A DNA stretch of 64,000 nucleotides from SAR202 cluster bacterium (GCA_013204585.1 JABMNL010000028.1:29669-93668), one strand, 5' to 3'; shown: positions 5,957-64,000, counted from the stretch's first letter. A program made the numbers and translations. Notes: generated by a model from the letters alone, not told the origin.

Positions 5957-7144
5957 ATGATTAAGAATTTCGGTAGTTTGTACGCCGGACACGTTGACCT
6001 TGGAGACATCGGACTGGCAGGCACAGCCGTCAACGAACGCCGCTTCGACAATGACCACCTCATAACCATCTACGACCGCGTTGAGCAGATAGTCAAAGTG
6101 ATGGACGACCTTCGCTACCACAGCTTCTGGGCCGCCGAGCACCACTTCCAACACGAGGGCAACGAGACCATCCCGAATTTACTCTTGCTCTACGTGCATC
6201 TGGCCAATATCACCAAGAACTTAAAGTTCGGCTGCGGGTTCAACATCAACCCCATGTGGCACCCACTGCGATTGGCCGAAGACTACGCCACCGCCGACAT
6301 ACTGACCAACGGTCGAGTAATCTTCGGCGTGGGCCGTGGTTACCACTCGCGTGAGGTGGCCACTTTCGGCGTCCCCAGCACCGACATGGACAGCGACACC
6401 AACCGGGAGGTATTCGAAGAGCAGGTCGAAATCATGATGAAGGCCTTCAACCAGGTGTCCTTCTCCCATCACGGCAAGCATTACGACCTGCCACCCGAAG
6501 TCCCATACCGTGGCTATACGCTCAAAGAAATAACGCTGGTGCCACGGCCCAAACACCTGCCAGTGGAGACCTGGCAACCCATGGTCAGCGCTGGCCAGCG
6601 GGCCATGGACTTCATGGCCAAGCACGGCATCCAGGCGATTGTCGGCGGCGGAGCCGTCACCGGCGGCCCCAACGATGAGGTAATCAAGCGTTGGACCGAG
6701 ACCCTGGTCAACCACGGCCATACCGACGCCCAGTTGGGCAGTCGCCTGACAATTGGGCTGCCCACATTCATCGCCGATTCCGAGAAAGAGGCCATCGACC
6801 AGGCCAGGAAGTACTTCGAAGAGGACATGAAGATGTTCGGCCCCTTGGGCTTCTTCCGTGGGTTCACCCCGGAGATGCTCGACGCCTTGGGCGACCCCAA
6901 GCGGGCACCCACAACCTCTAGTCTGCCAACCTTCGAAGAAACCGTAGCCGCGGGCGCTTGGCTCTGCGGCACCGCCGAGCAAATCACAGAACGCATCATG
7001 GAGATTCAAGACAAGTTCCCCGGACTTGAGTACATGCACGTTGGCTGTGTCCGTCAGGGTACGCCTTTGAACGTGATGATTGAACAACTCGAGCGCTTCG
7101 GCAAAGAGGTCATGCCCAAGTTCAACGTGGCGAAACCTGGCTAG
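5957..7144 (+). CDS. LLM-class flavin-dependent oxidoreductase (luciferase-like monooxygenase)
   Basis: 395-aa ORF. Motifs FWAAEHHF, GRVIFGVGRGY and PRPKH are typical of the family. Confidence 0.8.
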   Translation: MIKNFGSLYAGHVDLGDIGLAGTAVNERRFDNDHLITIYDRVEQIVKVMDDLRYHSFWAAEHHFQHEGNETIPNLLLLYVHLANITKNLKFGCGFNINPMWHPLRLAEDYATADILTNGRVIFGVGRGYHSREVATFGVPSTDMDSDTNREVFEEQVEIMMKAFNQVSFSHHGKHYDLPPEVPYRGYTLKEITLVPRPKHLPVETWQPMVSAGQRAMDFMAKHGIQAIVGGGAVTGGPNDEVIKRWTETLVNHGHTDAQLGSRLTIGLPTFIADSEKEAIDQARKYFEEDMKMFGPLGFFRGFTPEMLDALGDPKRAPTTSSLPTFEETVAAGAWLCGTAEQITERIMEIQDKFPGLEYMHVGCVRQGTPLNVMIEQLERFGKEVMPKFNVAKPG

Positions 7145-7180
7145 CATCGACATCCAAGTCATACGGCATCCAGCAAACAT

Positions 7181-7220
7181 AAAAAGAGGCCTCTCGTAAT
7201 GAGAGGCCTCTTTTGTTTTC
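7181..7220 (+). terminator. Rho-independent terminator
   Basis: Perfect stem AAGAGGCCTCTC/GAGAGGCCTCTT with loop GTAAT, followed by TTGTTTT. Confidence 0.8.
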
Positions 7221-7224
7221 AAAT

Positions 7225-7301
7225 TGGTCGGGGTGGTCGGATTCGAACCGACGACCCCCTACACCCCATGCAGGTGCCCTACCGGACTGGGCCACACCCC
7301 G
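7225..7301 (-). tRNA. tRNA-Pro (anticodon GGG), CCA encoded
   Basis: 77-nt cloverleaf folded by hand on the minus strand. Acceptor CGGGGTG/CACCCCG, D stem GCCC/GGGC, anticodon stem CCTGC/GTAGG with loop ATGGGGT, T arm GTCGG-TTCGAAT-CCGAC, discriminator A plus CCA. Confidence 0.9.
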
Positions 7302-7417
7302 ACGCGTTGATAATTATAGCACGCACAATCCAGGCGCGGGGTATCCTGCAAATATTATCTTCCTATTGCAAGGGGGAGAGTTGTTTGCCTACAGAAGAAT
7401 GACATCCCATTGAGGAC

Positions 7418-57626: not shown

Positions 57627-59336
57627 TTAATCCGCCGCAGCCGCTAGGCGTTTTCGAACATCTGCCAGCACGCCGGCCAGCGGCACACTGCCAGCCTCAG
57701 ACTCAGTACGTCCCTTTACCTCGGCCATCCCGTTCTTCAAGTTACGGGGACTGACCACCAGCCTCACCGGCAGACCCATCAAGTCGGCGTCGTTAAACTT
57801 CACGCCTGCCGCCGAGTCTTCCCGGTCGTCGTACAGCACTTCGATGCCCCCCGCCTCTAGTTCCTTGTATAGCTGGTCTGCAGCCTCGGCTACCGCTTGG
57901 TCGGCAAGATTCAACCCCACAAGGTGGACCTGATACGGGGCAATCGAAGCCGGGAACACAATGCCTTTTTCGTCGTTGCTCTGCTCTATCGCCGCAGCCA
58001 GCAGCCGACCCACACCAATTCCGTAGCAACCCATGATGATTGGGTGTTGCTGCCCTTCACTGTCTAGGAACATCGCACCAAGGCTCTCACTAAAGAACGT
58101 TCCAAGCTTGAAGATATGCCCGACTTCAACGCCCCGCGTAGATTCCAGGGCGTGTCCGCAACGTACACAAAGCTGCCCTGGCTGGGCCAACGCTATATCA
58201 GCCACGATGTCGGCCTTGAAATCTCTTGGGTAGTTGGCGGCCTTGAAATGGGTGTCCGCCTTATTTGCCCCTACCACGAAGTTGTTGCCCTTGGTTATCG
58301 ATACGTCGGCTACATGCTTGATCCCGCTAAGCCCAACGGCTGATGCAGAACCGGCAACCAGACCCGCAGCTTTGACCTCGTGGTCTTCCGCCAACCGCAG
58401 ATCATGGGATTGGATGGCATTCTTCAGCTTGGTTTCATTCACGTCCAGGTCGCCCCGGATGGTGACGAATAGTGGCGCGCCGTCGGATATGTAGAAAACA
58501 GCTTTTAGCGTCTTCGACTCGGGTATCTTGAGAAACTCGGCCAGCCCGGCGATGGTTTTCAGGCCCGGAGTGCTAATCTCTTCCAGCGCTTCTTCCGGCT
58601 CGGCGGGGACTTCAGCGTAGTTGGACTCGGCCTTTTCAGCGTTGGCGGTGTAAGAACATGATGAACAGGTGATAACCGTGTCCTCTCCGGTCTCGGTGGC
58701 GAGCAGAAACTCGTGGGAGTCTTTGCCGCCGATGGCCCCGCTGTCGGCCTCGGCCATCAACACCGGGATGCCGCAACGCCGGAAGATGTTGTGGTAGGCC
58801 TGGGCCATGGCCTGATAGCTTTCGTCGAGACTGGCATCGTCGGCGTTGAAGCTATAGGCGTCTTTCATATCGAATTCCCGCACGCGAACCAGACCGGCCC
58901 TGGGACGGGGTTCGTCACGGAACTTGGTCTGAATTTGGTACAAGATGAGCGGCAAGTCCCGGTAACTCTGGACATTGGCCTTGACCACGTTGGTGACGAC
59001 TTCCTCGTGGGTTGGCGCCAACACCATGGGACGCCCTCTGCGGTCTTCAAAAGAGAATAGATTGTCCCCGAAGGCTTCCCGTCGGCCCGTTTCTTCCCAC
59101 AGTTCCTGGGGCTGGAGCGCGGGCATCAATAACTCCTGACCGCCGACTGCATCTATTTCTTCCCGGATTATGTTTTCAATCTTGCGCAACGACCGCAGGG
59201 CCAACGGCAGGTAGGTATAGACCCCCGAAGCCACCTGATGAATTAGTCCGGCGCGAAGCAAAAGCCGGTGACTCGCGGTTTCGGCTTCGGGCGGGTCGTC
59301 TCGCAGCGTCTTGGATAACATCCGGGAGAATCTCAT
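57627..59336 (-). CDS. proS: Proline-tRNA ligase (bacterial type with INS editing domain)
   Basis: 569-aa ORF. It starts MRFSRMLSKTLRDDP..HRLLLRAGLI and has class II motifs and a C-terminal anticodon-binding domain. Confidence 0.9.
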   Translation of the reverse strand: MRFSRMLSKTLRDDPPEAETASHRLLLRAGLIHQVASGVYTYLPLALRSLRKIENIIREEIDAVGGQELLMPALQPQELWEETGRREAFGDNLFSFEDRRGRPMVLAPTHEEVVTNVVKANVQSYRDLPLILYQIQTKFRDEPRPRAGLVRVREFDMKDAYSFNADDASLDESYQAMAQAYHNIFRRCGIPVLMAEADSGAIGGKDSHEFLLATETGEDTVITCSSCSYTANAEKAESNYAEVPAEPEEALEEISTPGLKTIAGLAEFLKIPESKTLKAVFYISDGAPLFVTIRGDLDVNETKLKNAIQSHDLRLAEDHEVKAAGLVAGSASAVGLSGIKHVADVSITKGNNFVVGANKADTHFKAANYPRDFKADIVADIALAQPGQLCVRCGHALESTRGVEVGHIFKLGTFFSESLGAMFLDSEGQQHPIIMGCYGIGVGRLLAAAIEQSNDEKGIVFPASIAPYQVHLVGLNLADQAVAEAADQLYKELEAGGIEVLYDDREDSAAGVKFNDADLMGLPVRLVVSPRNLKNGMAEVKGRTESEAGSVPLAGVLADVRKRLAAAAD

Positions 59337-59619
59337 ATTTGGACAATGCCTCTCTTGGGGGTTCTTATGGTGTGTTTAAATCCGGCCAGCCGGAGCCAAT
59401 ACATTATAACGACTGACGGTGGGATAGCGACTGACAATAGAAATGCCCTTATAGGCCTTGAGAAGGCCGTAGCTGTGTCGGTGACCCTTCCAACACCTAG
59501 ATGGTTCTGAATCGGGTTTTATCTGGCGAGAGGGCTTCTACGGGTAAAGGCCGTGGCGCAATCTTTGGTATAAGACTTTGATATGATTCCGGAAGAAGTA
59601 GAGACGGCAATACGCATTT

Positions 59620-60474
59620 ATGAATATGAAACCAGACTCTTCCCACCAGGAACAAATCGACGATGCTGTGGTAGAGAGCTATTTTGATGGTGCAGGCGGA
59701 ACAAATGCCGCCTCAATGAGCATGATGGCTCACGGGCACAACTTACCCTCAAATTCAGTCGCCCAACGGCTAGCCAACGAGCAAAGAACTATTGGCAAAT
59801 GGCTCGCTACGGTGCCTGACTCCGGAAGGATACTCGATGTTGGCTGTGGCGCTGGGGCCTGGGTAGAGATTTTCGCCAATCGCTACGACAGCGTCATTGG
59901 AGTCGAGCGAAGCCAGCTAATGGTCGATGCGGCGAGAATTCGAGTCAGCCATCTGGCCAATGCTCAGATTCTAAGCGGTGATGGGCGAAAAGACTTACCA
60001 GAAGGGCCCTTCGATATGATATTCGTGGGCGGCCTTTTCATGTATCTCAACGACTCAGACGCGGTCTCACTTCTTCAAGCCTTGAAAGACCGCCTTAGCT
60101 CTGGCGGCTCGATTATTCTCCGTGAATCGACAGTGCGGACAGGAGCGTTGTTAGCCAAAGGCGAGTACCAAGCAATCTACCGCAGCGTGGACTTGTACCA
60201 GAATCTATTCCAAGAGGCCGACATCACTTGTCTGGAGGTCCAACAAAACGCTGGCTACAGGAATATGGTGATTGCCGAGGAAATAGTAAGTTTTCGCCGT
60301 AAATGGCTGCCCTTCTTGCCCAAGGATTCTGCTTTGCTGGGCAACCTTACATGGTGGGCATTAAGAGGGATTGCGCCAATTAGCTTCGGGGCATTGCCAA
60401 AGGCTTTGTCGGTAGTAAATGTCCCATGGCCTCGGCTGCAGAACCACTTCTTCTTGCTGCAACTCGCCAGTTAA
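59620..60474 (+). CDS. Class I SAM-dependent methyltransferase
   Basis: Motif I ILDVGCGAGAW and post-I/II pattern DMIFVGGLFMYL. 284 aa. Confidence 0.7.
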   Translation: MNMKPDSSHQEQIDDAVVESYFDGAGGTNAASMSMMAHGHNLPSNSVAQRLANEQRTIGKWLATVPDSGRILDVGCGAGAWVEIFANRYDSVIGVERSQLMVDAARIRVSHLANAQILSGDGRKDLPEGPFDMIFVGGLFMYLNDSDAVSLLQALKDRLSSGGSIILRESTVRTGALLAKGEYQAIYRSVDLYQNLFQEADITCLEVQQNAGYRNMVIAEEIVSFRRKWLPFLPKDSALLGNLTWWALRGIAPISFGALPKALSVVNVPWPRLQNHFFLLQLAS

Positions 60475-60485
60475 AAAGCCAGCGG

Positions 60486-61154
60486 TTATTCCGTCCAAAT
60501 GATATATGTGTACGCTGCGGTCAAGATTAAGACGTACGCGGTAACGACGTAATACCACCGACCTTCCAATTTGCCCATTCGAAACGGCGCAACGTGTAAG
60601 TACGCCAAAACCAACACCGTAACGTAGAGCACGGCAGCAAATATGTCGCTGTTGATTATTGTGTGCAACAAGAACACCGCTGAAATGACAAGCGGTGAGT
60701 TGTCGATGGTTAGACCGGCGTGGGCACCGTTTTTATCGAGTCCGTAAACATCGAAGTAAGCAAGGCGAAGAACCCCTGCCACGACTATGGCCAGCGCCCC
60801 TGGGTAGAACCACGGACTGAAATTCCCGACGCTGAGCAGCAGAATTGCCGGCCCCACCGCCGACGTCACCATATCAACCAACGAATCCATACGGGCGCCA
60901 AATTGTTTTTGTGACTCGGTCCTGTTCGGCATGCTTCTAGCGACCAAGCCGTCGAACCAGTCCATCAAAACAGCCCAAAGAATCGCAATTATCGCGGCTG
61001 GAAAATTCTGATTCAGCGCGAAGTAGATGGCCAGCAGCCCACCACTAAGCCCGAGCAGTGTGACAATGTTGGCCCGATCAACGACAAACGACAGGATATC
61101 CGGCAATCGCGTTTCGTCGCCTGGTTCACCGCCGAGTACTCTAGGCTCTGTCAA
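60486..61154 (-). CDS. CDP-alcohol phosphatidyltransferase family protein (PssA-like motif)
   Basis: DWFDGLVARSMPNRTESQKQFGARMDSLVDMV fits D-x2-DG-x2-AR-...-G-x3-D-x3-D. Polytopic, 222 aa. Confidence 0.8.
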   Translation of the reverse strand: MTEPRVLGGEPGDETRLPDILSFVVDRANIVTLLGLSGGLLAIYFALNQNFPAAIIAILWAVLMDWFDGLVARSMPNRTESQKQFGARMDSLVDMVTSAVGPAILLLSVGNFSPWFYPGALAIVVAGVLRLAYFDVYGLDKNGAHAGLTIDNSPLVISAVFLLHTIINSDIFAAVLYVTVLVLAYLHVAPFRMGKLEGRWYYVVTAYVLILTAAYTYIIWTE

Positions 61155-61197
61155 TTTCCCCTCTTTTTGTTTAATAGCAAACCAAAAGTTAACCGGC

Positions 61198-61926
61198 CTA
61201 CGAATTAGAAATGGAAAACTCTATGGGTAGGTCTTCCAAGTCTAGCGTCGTCGGCCCACCTTCAAGGACACCCTTTTGGATTAACAACATCGTCATACAG
61301 ACTTCGTTGTGCGGCGGTTCAACTTCCTTAGCGACCTGGTGGAAGTACCCGGTACCGCGCAGCGCCTTGGGCTTGGGCTCCAACTGTAGGATAAAGTTGG
61401 CCACCTCGTCTGCGTCGTTCACCACGTACGGGACCGTGGCTTCAACGTTTTGGCCATTGAATTGGATATCGTAGACCGATTCCAGCTGGTTCCCGATGCC
61501 TTTCAACAGCCTAATATCGACGAGAACGAAACGGTTGGACACGCGGTACATCTCTTTCAGCATCTCTTGATAATTGGGTTCGTTATTGAAAACGCTAGTG
61601 CAGTGAACAACGTCAAAGGTGTTGTCATCGAAGGGCAACCCGAAACCTTCTGTGACCATGAACTTAGCTTCGGGGTAGCGTTCCTCAGCTAATGCCACGG
61701 CCCTTTCCGACAGATCGACTCCGGTGTATTCGATATGCGGCTCATAAGAGCGCATGATGTTGAAGAATCCGCCCGAAGCGCAGCCCACGTCCAGAACCAT
61801 GGCGCCAGGGAACAAGACTCGTGGCAGGAATATCTTTTCCGACGCATAGAGGTCCGAAATCTCATGGCGATTTTGAGAGTAAAAGTCTATCGCGCTCTGA
61901 TTGGACCATTCTTGGGCTGTACTCAA
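61198..61926 (-). CDS. Class I SAM-dependent methyltransferase
   Basis: Motif I VLDVGCASGGF. 242 aa. Same strand and operon-like spacing with its neighbours. Confidence 0.7.
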   Translation of the reverse strand: MSTAQEWSNQSAIDFYSQNRHEISDLYASEKIFLPRVLFPGAMVLDVGCASGGFFNIMRSYEPHIEYTGVDLSERAVALAEERYPEAKFMVTEGFGLPFDDNTFDVVHCTSVFNNEPNYQEMLKEMYRVSNRFVLVDIRLLKGIGNQLESVYDIQFNGQNVEATVPYVVNDADEVANFILQLEPKPKALRGTGYFHQVAKEVEPPHNEVCMTMLLIQKGVLEGGPTTLDLEDLPIEFSISNS

Positions 61927-61993
61927 TCGAAGTCTCCTACTGAATGATGGCCTGAATGATAACGGCCCGGTCAGGCCACGTTAGCTTACCCAG

Positions 61994-62740
61994 CTAACTG
62001 ACTGCGGCAATGTCGAACATCCTATCTGCTTCCAAAAGGTCGCCCAAGGTATCAATCTCCGCCCATTTCCTGTTTCCGGTATCCATTAGCGCCATACGCA
62101 TATCGTTGGAGCTGATAAGACTGGCGAACACCGCCTCGTAGTACAGGTCGGTCCGGTCCGCTGCCAAGAATTCTGACATCTTTGGAACAATGGTTTCCAC
62201 CAACGTGTCTTTAGCAAAGCGATAAATATTCACAGTTTTGAAGGCGGAACCATAATCAAAATCCGGGCCTTGGTCCGACTTTAAGACCATCTGTTTCGCA
62301 ACGCCCCAACCCGCCATGATGACCGTACCGTCCATTGTTGGCTGAAATTGGTCGACTACTGCCACATTTGGTTCGTCCATTAGCAGCAGGTCACAGAGCA
62401 ACAGGTCGTCAAACACCAAGTCTGACTCTAGGAGCACGATGTCGTCGTCAAATTCCGCCCTGGCCAGCCATAGGGAATAGAGGTTATTGGTCGTTTCGTA
62501 GGCTGTGTTCTCCACATAGGAGAGTTTTACCCCTCGGTAGTCCAATCCAAAATAGCTTCGAATTGCATCGGCCATACACCCAACGACAATGGTGCACTCT
62601 GCGATTCCGGCCCTTCGCAGGGAATCCAGTTGATATTGCATCATGGGCCTACCTGCCACTTCGACCAGGCTTTTTGGACGCATGCGAGTCATTGGATGGA
62701 GTCTCGTGCCCATACCTGCAGCTAAAATTAGTCCTTTCAT
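61994..62740 (-). CDS. LicC-like nucleotidyltransferase (phospho-alcohol / phosphonate cytidylyltransferase family)
   Basis: MKGLILAAGMGTRLHPMTRMRPKSLVEV plus TNNLYSLWLA, a pattern I associate with the LicC/PntC-type NTP transferases. Confidence 0.65.
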   Translation of the reverse strand: MKGLILAAGMGTRLHPMTRMRPKSLVEVAGRPMMQYQLDSLRRAGIAECTIVVGCMADAIRSYFGLDYRGVKLSYVENTAYETTNNLYSLWLARAEFDDDIVLLESDLVFDDLLLCDLLLMDEPNVAVVDQFQPTMDGTVIMAGWGVAKQMVLKSDQGPDFDYGSAFKTVNIYRFAKDTLVETIVPKMSEFLAADRTDLYYEAVFASLISSNDMRMALMDTGNRKWAEIDTLGDLLEADRMFDIAAVS

Positions 62741-62743
62741 CGG

Positions 62744-63853
62744 TTACCTCACTTCCGCGGCATCAAACTTGCCGGGCTCAGTAAATTTCTCCAGACGCAT
62801 AAACGCCTCGACGAGACGGGTATTATCTTCCTCGGTGCGGCAGGCAATTCGTATGTAGTTGCCCTCCAAACCTTCTTTTGCCCCACAATTGTTGACCAAG
62901 ACACGGCAGTCCTCGAACAGGTGTGCCGTAAGCTCTTCTCCGGTGATGCCATTCAAGATTCGACAGAGGATGAAATTACCCTGGGTTGGGAATGGCTCAA
63001 GAAATGGAACTTGCTGGAGCCCGCGGGCTAATTTTTGCGTTGCCTCTCTAACCTGGCGGCAAGATTCGGTGTATTCCGTGCGGTATTCGCCCATCTCCTC
63101 AAGGAAATACTGGGCGAATGAATTGATGCTCCAAATGGGCAAATCCTTACGCAGGTCCGCCAACCGCTCTGCATTACCAGTGGCCGCGTAGCCAAGCCGG
63201 ATCCCCGGTATGCCACAGTTTTTGGAAAGACTCTTCAGCACCAATAGATTGGGATACTCGTTGATTAGGTCTAACGCCGATGGATTTGGCTCAGCATCAA
63301 CAAAGTCCAAGAAGGACTCATCCACCAATACCAAGTTGAGTGTCTTCATGCGGTCTAAGAAATAAACCAGGTCGCTCTTTGACAGATAACTACCCGTTGG
63401 GTTGTTAGGACGGATGAGGAGTGCAGAGTCTGAACCAGTGTTTCTAACGTGTTCAATGAACGCGTCAATATCCAGGTCAAAACCCTGTGACGGCGTGAAT
63501 GGACAAACCTCTCTACCCAAGATCTTGGCTCGATTCACGAACTCCTCAAACGTAGGCATTGGCACTGCCAACCGATGCACATATCGTGAAACTACGGCGT
63601 TAATAAGTTCACTTGCGCCGTTACCAATCACCAACTCGTTCTGCGTGAGGCCTATCTGCTCGGCCAACAATGATGAAAGATACCAATTGGTAGAAGGGTA
63701 ATTGCCGATCAATTCAGGCAATCTGGCCTGCATGTCTTCAATCATTCGTTGCTGAGGAAAGTACCGGTTGGTCATATAACAAAAATCTAGAACGTTTTTA
63801 TTCCAATAGCCGCCATATAGGGAAGAAAGGCGGCTAAGTTCATTGGTTTGCAT
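62744..63853 (-). CDS. PLP-dependent class I/II aminotransferase-fold enzyme (HisC/CobD-like; aminotransferase or phospho-amino-acid decarboxylase)
   Basis: Start at ATG 63853 (GGAG RBS). Motifs NPNNPTGSY-type (RPNNPTGSYL) and PLP-lysine LKSLSKNCGIPGIRLGY. Confidence 0.7.
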   Translation of the reverse strand: MQTNELSRLSSLYGGYWNKNVLDFCYMTNRYFPQQRMIEDMQARLPELIGNYPSTNWYLSSLLAEQIGLTQNELVIGNGASELINAVVSRYVHRLAVPMPTFEEFVNRAKILGREVCPFTPSQGFDLDIDAFIEHVRNTGSDSALLIRPNNPTGSYLSKSDLVYFLDRMKTLNLVLVDESFLDFVDAEPNPSALDLINEYPNLLVLKSLSKNCGIPGIRLGYAATGNAERLADLRKDLPIWSINSFAQYFLEEMGEYRTEYTESCRQVREATQKLARGLQQVPFLEPFPTQGNFILCRILNGITGEELTAHLFEDCRVLVNNCGAKEGLEGNYIRIACRTEEDNTRLVEAFMRLEKFTEPGKFDAAEVR

Positions 63854-64000
63854 GGTCCACTCCAATTGGATACAAAGGTTGCGCAAACACGAGAATTGCG
63901 CGAATACGAAAGGTGCGCAGATAGAAAAGGTCCCGGGAAAGCTAATCGAGGGCTGCGACGCAAATGCAACGCAATAAGGTTTTATAGCGGGATACGACTT

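Follow-up and report, generated by a model that had tools for sequence, protein, structure and literature searches.

By the textbook routes, bacterial phosphatidylethanolamine (PE) is made via PssA and Psd, and phosphatidylcholine (PC) is made via Pmt or Pcs or, rarely, by choline scavenging through LicCA-CPT. Whether bacteria possess a further route to these lipids is the question raised by a cassette of five genes in a SAR202 cluster bacterium. The cassette is located near the end of a 64,000-nucleotide stretch of DNA (JABMNL010000028.1:29669-93668, assembly GCA_013204585.1), the whole of which is referred to here as the window, on contig C17 of a 3.1 Mb genome that is 92% complete. It encodes a CobD-like pyridoxal phosphate (PLP) enzyme, a LicC-like cytidylyltransferase (NT), two S-adenosylmethionine (SAM) methyltransferases (MT1 and MT2) and a cytidine diphosphate (CDP)-alcohol phosphotransferase. 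Its gene content, the homologies of its products, gene fusion, co-occurrence, insertion into the genome and the absence of alternative pathways together lead to its being read as a kinase-free route to phospholipid head groups. We infer, chemical step by chemical step and with slightly better than even confidence, that the cassette, gained by horizontal transfer, specifies a head-group pathway of the Kennedy type that requires no kinase. A preliminary description of the window had suggested a route from a phospho-amino acid via a CDP-activated, methylated amino-alcohol to a phospholipid, and this suggestion is supported by the nearness of the PLP enzyme to known decarboxylases, by a gene linkage that is conserved up to the point of fusion, and by the homology of MT2 to phosphoethanolamine N-methyltransferases (PMTs). 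In the full-text literature, no description of the cassette or of such a pathway in bacteria was found.

Proposed pathway and its enzymes

In the proposed pathway, the PLP enzyme and NT would turn O-phospho-L-serine, a central metabolite, into CDP-ethanolamine. This could proceed in two orders: decarboxylation may come first, with phosphoethanolamine as the intermediate between phosphoserine and CDP-ethanolamine, or cytidylylation may come first, as in the protein FrbH discussed below, with CDP-serine as the intermediate. MT2, and probably MT1 too, would N-methylate the head group, most likely at the phosphobase stage, resulting in monomethyl- to trimethyl- (choline) forms. With diacylglycerol or some other membrane alcohol as acceptor, the phosphotransferase would then transfer the phospho-amino-alcohol from its CDP donor. 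PE, N-methyl-PE or PC-type lipids are the expected products; the one other head-group enzyme of this bacterium is phosphatidylinositol phosphate (PIP)-synthase-like. A wider claim, that SAR202 and many other marine bacteria make PC or N-methylated PE fully de novo from phosphoserine by a mobile, kinase-free cassette with a new PssA-derived class of choline/ethanolamine phosphotransferase, is put forward tentatively, with the balance tilting against it.

The PLP enzyme (369 amino acids; 62744..63853, minus strand; PF00155) is the proposed phosphoserine (or CDP-serine) decarboxylase. The CobD model TIGR01140 matches it best, at 185.8 bits (cut-off 290.55), followed by the hisC model TIGR01141 at 159 bits (cut-off 276.55). 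Among proteins in the PDB, the best match is the threonine-phosphate decarboxylase-like 6OUX (2.4e-42), with CobD 1LC5 next; we take 6OUX to be SMUL_1544 of Sulfurospirillum, a serine-phosphate decarboxylase. The SLSK lysine and the PNNPTG and IPGxRLGY motifs are common to the PLP enzyme and its solved relatives. Separate HisC-like paralogues with about 31% identity to the PLP enzyme are located on other contigs (G000:C65 and C33). A role as housekeeping HisC was rejected, because the enzyme scores below the hisC cut-off and these separate paralogues exist. With CobD and SMUL_1544-type decarboxylases scoring best, above hisC, the CobD side of the HisC/CobD-like designation in the preliminary description is favoured.

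NT (248 amino acids; 61994..62740, minus strand) matches PF00483/PF12804. Its best solved relative is LicC 1JYK (3.3e-17), in agreement with its earlier designation as a LicC-like nucleotidyltransferase, and PntC-AEPT 6PD1 was also matched. The signature of the LicC/PntC group, GxG(T/S)R-x4-8-PK, is present as GMGTRLHPMTRMRPK, in the form G-x-G-T-R-x8-P-K.

MT2 (284 amino acids; 59620..60474), a class I SAM methyltransferase, is encoded on the plus strand, convergent with the phosphotransferase gene. A search of the PDB with its family profile recovered AtPMT1 (2.5e-23), AtPMT2 (4.9e-23), nematode PMT-1 (~1e-14) and Plasmodium PMT (~1e-10). The alignment passes the SAM core and continues through the LMYL(S/D)D, (F/L)RES and YR motifs, and it is the N-terminal PMT domain that matches best. 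In plant and nematode PMTs, this N-terminal domain performs the first methylation. Judged by sequence, MT2 is homologous to the domain that carries out the first methylation in phosphoethanolamine N-methyltransferases, and the methylation step that had been suggested earlier thereby gains support. A conserved insert of three helices is seen towards the C-terminus in the structural model of MT2 (pLDDT 85.4). The fold neighbours of this model, amine N-methyltransferases and cyclopropane fatty acid (CFA) synthase, form a flat list in which all matches are near 1e-13 and which does not discriminate between them. MT1 (242 amino acids; 61198..61926, minus strand) is also a class I SAM methyltransferase, of which only the Rossmann core matches solved structures. 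It is limited to SAR202/Dehalococcoidia and abundant in SAR202 metagenome contigs, and its genomic context suggests that it probably also takes part in head-group methylation.

Conservation of the module across phyla

Relatives of the phosphotransferase were sought by scanning one genome per species; 101 were found, and 80 loci with 45-80% identity were kept. Clustering of gene neighbourhoods covered 82 loci of the phosphotransferase clade, which spans more than 10 phyla. The hosts of the relatives include Dehalococcoidia/SAR202, Bipolaricaulota, Thermotogae, Acidobacteriota, Ignavibacteria, Acidimicrobiia, Planctomycetaceae, Desulfobulbales, and Alpha- and Gammaproteobacteria, the last with Shewanella benthica KT99, S. 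maritima, Moritella, Colwellia, a Solemya symbiont and Thiomargarita. A PLP or NT partner is found within 5 kb of the phosphotransferase in 66 of the 82 loci, and MT2 is located beside it in half of them (41/82), across phyla. MT1 is present in 11 of the 82, all from close Dehalococcoidia. In about 25 loci, a single fusion protein of 603-708 amino acids, encoded directly upstream of the phosphotransferase, combines NT and the PLP enzyme (NT, then PLP). Such fusions are observed in Bipolaricaulota, Thermotogae, Dehalococcoidia, Acidobacteriota, Ignavibacteria, Acidimicrobiia, Planctomycetaceae, Thiomargarita and Rhodospirillaceae. Dozens of loci in many phyla share this gene set, which indicates that the arrangement in the window is no chance juxtaposition.

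Seven loci contain a small cytidylyltransferase of another family, PF01467 (ECT/CCT/TagD-type), flanking the phosphotransferase or MT2 (L076, L083, L086, L021, L023, L031 and L006). Six of these have no LicC-type NT nearby, and L006 carries both types. In the three loci that lack both the LicC-type enzyme and MT2, the PF01467 cytidylyltransferase adjoins the phosphotransferase; in L021, L023 and L031, MT2 follows directly downstream of the PF01467 gene on the same strand. This replacement of the LicC type by PF01467 enzymes suggests that the constant partner of the phosphotransferase is cytidylyltransferase activity. In the neighbourhoods of the 82 loci, there was no conserved kinase, no conserved phosphatase, and no glycosyltransferase, flippase or polymer gene conserved with the module.

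Variants of the module were also observed. An ATP-grasp (CPSase_L_D2-like) gene adjoins the phosphotransferase in six loci from Alphaproteobacteria and Desulfobulbales (L049, L050, L055, L068, L075 and L082), which suggests an additional amide-forming step on the head group. In the cultured S. benthica KT99 (L056, 5884-9492; also in L070), a class V aminotransferase and a second PF01066 protein are encoded together with the clade phosphotransferase and a LicC-like NT, and this variant operon in L056 adjoins fadR and a transposase fragment.

Lipid and substrate background of the genome

Two PF01066 genes are present in the genome: that of the cassette and a PIP-synthase-like gene (L007, G000:C30:72990-73451) beside a GT4 glycosyltransferase gene. 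Most genomes of the order contain the PIP-synthase-like gene as their sole PF01066 member. No match to Psd (PF02666) was obtained in the 92%-complete genome, and PgsA, PssA and Pcs were not detected in it either. The repertoire of phospholipid head-group enzymes of this genome is unusually small.

The choline kinase family is also unmatched in the genome, and choline salvage was rejected on this ground. The best match to the ICL/PEPM family reaches 147 bits (cut-off 319.55) and reads EDQ..PK.CG instead of the EDKxxxxxNS of phosphoenolpyruvate (PEP) mutase. With PEP mutase absent from the genome, a phosphonate head group was rejected for this organism. That description had also pointed to the DNA just past the window end as a place to look for pepM or choline kinase; ispG is located there, and neither of the two is. 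With no kinase of any sort conserved in the neighbourhoods and neither choline kinase nor PEP mutase in the genome, the substrate would be expected to enter the pathway in phosphorylated form.

The CDP-alcohol phosphotransferase

The phosphotransferase (222 amino acids; 60486..61154, minus strand; PF01066) has the motif DWFDGLVAR-x12-GARMDSLVD, in which every catalytic Asp, Gly and Arg is kept; the motif is thus intact, as had been noted earlier. Against the PssA model TIGR00473 the protein scores 80.9 bits (cut-off 107) and against the archaetidylserine synthase model NF038087 87.5 bits (cut-off 240), and it is also below the Pcs cut-off. A sequence search of the PDB matched the phosphatidylserine synthase MjPSS at 7e-07. 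Of the MjPSS residues, Ser63 and Arg101 are kept, Ser65 is replaced by Val and Arg104 by Tyr133, and the motif loop has 12 residues, not the 8 of the PssA motif DxxDGxxAR-x8-GxxxDxxxD. Across the clade, Ser65 is missing and Tyr, His or Phe takes the place of the second RLxRF Arg; the clade signatures are AR-x12-G and RL[AS][YHF]F. An exhaustive HMMER search for relatives resulted in 96 clusters (50% identity) at E <=1e-30. Nearly all of the top 150 matches have the x11-x12 spacing and RL[AS][YHF]F, and where the motif could be located in full-length top representatives (72 proteins), the spacing is x11-x12 in 69; RL[AS][YHF]F is read in nearly all of those with a recognised second motif. The canonical x8 with RLARF is confined to the lowest-ranking matches. 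On these signatures, the phosphotransferase is assigned to a distinct, PssA-like clade.

For the AlphaFold2 (AF2) model of this six-helix protein (pLDDT 91.9), the nearest fold is MjPSS (TM-score 0.67-0.73), followed by PIP synthases. In Foldseek, MjPSS was matched at 1.9e-06 (TMq 0.67) and CEPT1 8GYW at E 0.96 (TMq 0.36). The protein thus falls outside the CPT/EPT structural class, which lowers its membership in that class but not the functional analogy. A role as housekeeping PssA was rejected on account of the scores below cut-off, the two signature departures and the lack of Psd in the genome. The preliminary description had named a bona fide HisC, a housekeeping PssA and a lack of conserved linkage as the combination that would speak against its reading; none of the three is found.

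Weighing of the proposed pathway and alternative explanations

Several observations weigh against the proposed pathway. By both sequence and predicted fold, the phosphotransferase is nearest to enzymes that use CDP-diacylglycerol and far from CEPT1 and AF2299. Its 12-residue motif spacing equals that in the Pcs motif DGX2ARX8PX3GX3DX3D (PMC7867332), and Pcs uses CDP-diacylglycerol and free choline. MT2 resembles methyltransferases that act on lipids, such as CFA synthase, and could therefore methylate the lipid instead. For MT1, searches with one sequence and with the family profile alike matched nothing past the SAM core, the matches to the PMT C-domain being weak (2e-06). Canonical SerC_1 was not found in the genome, where the best match reaches 25.6 bits (G000:C72:31705-32403); other SerC types exist, and phosphoserine may be synthesised in this organism by another class V aminotransferase.

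The likenesses of the phosphotransferase to CDP-diacylglycerol users are the main reason for doubt and give rise to an alternative, already named in outline in the preliminary description, in which the phosphotransferase is CDP-diacylglycerol-dependent like PssA or Pcs and uses free serine or a free (methylated) amino-alcohol, while the other enzymes supply or modify the alcohol or serve another acceptor. Phosphatidylserine synthases are its best sequence models and nearest fold, the Ser63 and Arg101 of MjPSS and the Pcs-like AR-x12-G spacing point the same way, and cdsA is located 5 kb away, though in the ancestral flank. This alternative is nevertheless unlikely, since it leaves the nearly universal adjacency of a cytidylyltransferase, the NT-PLP fusion and the replacement of NT by an unrelated cytidylyltransferase family unexplained. 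It would also call for a phosphatase to free the base and for Psd to use phosphatidylserine, and neither a conserved phosphatase nor Psd is present; the clade-wide loss of Ser65 and of the second RLxRF Arg, and the scores under the PssA and Pcs cut-offs, count against it as well.

Alternatively, the acceptor of the CDP-activated head group could be soluble or otherwise not a glycerolipid (candidates being a sugar phosphate, glycan, polyprenol or ceramide), resulting in a phosphodiester solute or surface decoration as in IPCT/DIPPS. PF01066 members such as DIPPS are membrane proteins with soluble acceptors, the phosphotransferase has 4MND as one of its fold neighbours, and the variant cassettes with an ATP-grasp ligase or a second PF01066 protein suggest further elaboration. 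We regard this as quite improbable, however, because no glycosyltransferase, flippase or polymer gene travels with the module, the compact PLP-NT-phosphotransferase core recurs in very different genomic settings, and the nearest relatives of the phosphotransferase are lipid synthases.

The same logic with another head group, namely 1-amino-2-propanol phosphate (from threonine phosphate), serinol phosphate (by transamination of dihydroxyacetone phosphate) or 2-aminoethylphosphonate, would draw on the threonine-phosphate decarboxylases in the CobD family, on the activation of aminoethylphosphonate by the LicC relatives PntC and on the HisC/CobD-type enzymes of Campylobacter capsule synthesis, which make ethanolamine phosphate or serinol phosphate, but it is the least probable of these alternatives, as conservation with the module extends to neither a threonine kinase nor a kinase of any other kind, PEP mutase is missing from the genome and MT2 is homologous to phosphoethanolamine methyltransferases.

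Acquisition and spread within the genus

In all ten same-genus genomes with enough contig, ispG is directly followed by proS. Homology between the window and these ten ispG-proS loci ends near 59418 and restarts at 64357, which indicates that about 4.94 kb has been inserted between ispG and proS in the window genome. The inserted segment (59419..64000, continuing to window-equivalent position 64356) consists of the five genes and an AT-rich leader of about 500 nt. Its GC content is 0.50-0.52 over 59500-63500 and 0.46-0.52 over the whole insert, compared to 0.55-0.61 in the flanks, and the lower GC relative to the proS side that had been noticed earlier is borne out.

Among 201 genomes sampled from the class, only 5 contain the phosphotransferase; within the genus, 6 of 13 species carry it. 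All six of these species also carry PLP-NT orthologues. In four genomes (G201, G204, G206 and G208), the module is split over two loci, with PLP-NT-MT1 at one and the phosphotransferase with convergent MT2 at the other; both the phosphotransferase and PLP-NT are absent from G202 and G205. MT1 accompanies PLP-NT in the split loci L146, L148 and L149. The window cassette unites the two halves that are found separate in the sister species. Its phosphotransferase and MT2 have 73-81% identity to the joined cassettes of other Dehalococcoidia and 56-65% to the split copies of its own genus, and this higher identity to joined cassettes outside the genus agrees with the transfer of a complete unit. Sequence comparison thus indicates that the cassette is a recent, horizontal acquisition of the window genome.

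In a further genome (G211, locus L147, G211:C69), PLP-NT is kept, MT1 (region 6609-7335) is frameshifted into two frames and the phosphotransferase was not detected; the pathway may be decaying there, or the assembly may have a gap. The sole sequencing run with the entire cassette (window 59400-64000) is labelled as a freshwater metagenome, and the runs with partial cassettes and the relatives are marine. No RNA sequencing run containing the cassette was found.

Relation to known systems and significance

The eukaryotic Kennedy pathway and the LicCA-CPT system of Treponema denticola resemble the proposed pathway in that a phospho-amino-alcohol is activated with cytidine triphosphate and transferred to diacylglycerol by a PF01066 enzyme, and in T. 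denticola the cytidylyltransferase is of the LicC type, which NT resembles. Both systems begin at the free base with a kinase, whereas the cassette has no kinase and its proposed entry is the PLP decarboxylase of a phospho-amino acid. The cassette phosphotransferase is a small six-helix PssA-like protein, unlike the CPT/EPT-type enzymes of these pathways. As to the PEAMT/PMT systems of plants, nematodes and Plasmodium, MT2 is homologous to the N-terminal domains of the plant PMT and of nematode PMT-1, with shared motifs past the SAM site; in contrast to these enzymes, MT2 is a single-domain protein with its own conserved C-terminal helical segment, and MT1 is not recognisably PMT-like.

FrbH, from FR-900098 biosynthesis in Streptomyces rubellomurinus, cytidylylates an amino-acid phosphonate (PMC6697681). 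It is composed of a nucleotidyltransferase followed by a CobD-like PLP decarboxylase, the same two-domain logic as in the fused NT-PLP proteins of the module. The CMP (cytidine monophosphate) conjugate is then reportedly decarboxylated by FrbH. FrbH belongs to a phosphonate antibiotic pathway, while the window genome has separate genes in the order PLP-NT, no PEP mutase, and a membrane phosphotransferase that follows. CobD and SMUL_1544 of cobamide synthesis are the best-scoring family and the best structure for the PLP enzyme, with the PLP lysine and motifs in common, but the PLP enzyme is below the CobD trusted cut-off, its context is not that of cobamide synthesis, and it is coupled or fused to a cytidylyltransferase. 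PssA (MjPSS) resembles the cassette phosphotransferase in fold, size and catalytic motif residues, and Pcs resembles it in the 12-residue spacing; it differs from both in that its partner is a cytidylyltransferase and not Psd.

If the proposed pathway is true, bacteria would have one more way of making PC and PE that relies on none of PssA/Psd, Pmt and Pcs, and its start from phosphoserine would need neither a free base nor a kinase. A cassette that moves between phyla would change the genome-based prediction of amino-phospholipid capacity and would explain the gain of zwitterionic lipids in lineages that have none of PssA, Psd and Pcs. Its genes would also serve as a marker for N-methylated phospholipids of the deep ocean, where SAR202 are abundant, and could reveal which organisms produce the N-methyl-PE and PC signals there; the phosphotransferase clade would represent a new functional class within the CDP-alcohol phosphotransferases.

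Locus layout and leader region

The five open reading frames (ORFs), their strands and their spacing agree with the preliminary description. The gap between the PLP enzyme and NT genes is 3 nt, the following gaps are 67 and 43 nt, and 11 nt separate the convergent stops of the phosphotransferase and MT2 genes. The PLP gene most probably starts with ATG at 63853, with GGAG 8 nt upstream; a longer ORF form covers 62744-63886. The downstream flank of the insertion site is formed by proS (57627..59336, minus strand), and ispG, rseP, dxr, cdsA, uppS, frr, pyrH and rpsB are located beyond the window end.

The first part of the 5' leader of the operon (63854..64000, minus strand) lies within the window; the remainder, just outside it, contains an upstream ORF (uORF) and a hairpin. 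A riboswitch or known RNA in the leader was rejected, as no Rfam match was obtained at E values up to 1, and promoter and terminator scans resulted in no more hits than in shuffled controls. The uORF has 25 codons, MTKSSPITPCITDYKVLTLILLSFG (L002:4741-4818, window-equivalent 64072-64149, minus strand), is located 296 nt upstream of the PLP gene and is preceded by a GGAGG Shine-Dalgarno sequence. After the uORF, a small hairpin, GGTTTCC-TTCG-GGAAGTC, is present with weak covariation. A uORF of 25-26 codons ending in F-G or F-R recurs in L003, L010, L011, L016 and L148, and it may be a leader peptide/attenuator or a tiny membrane peptide.

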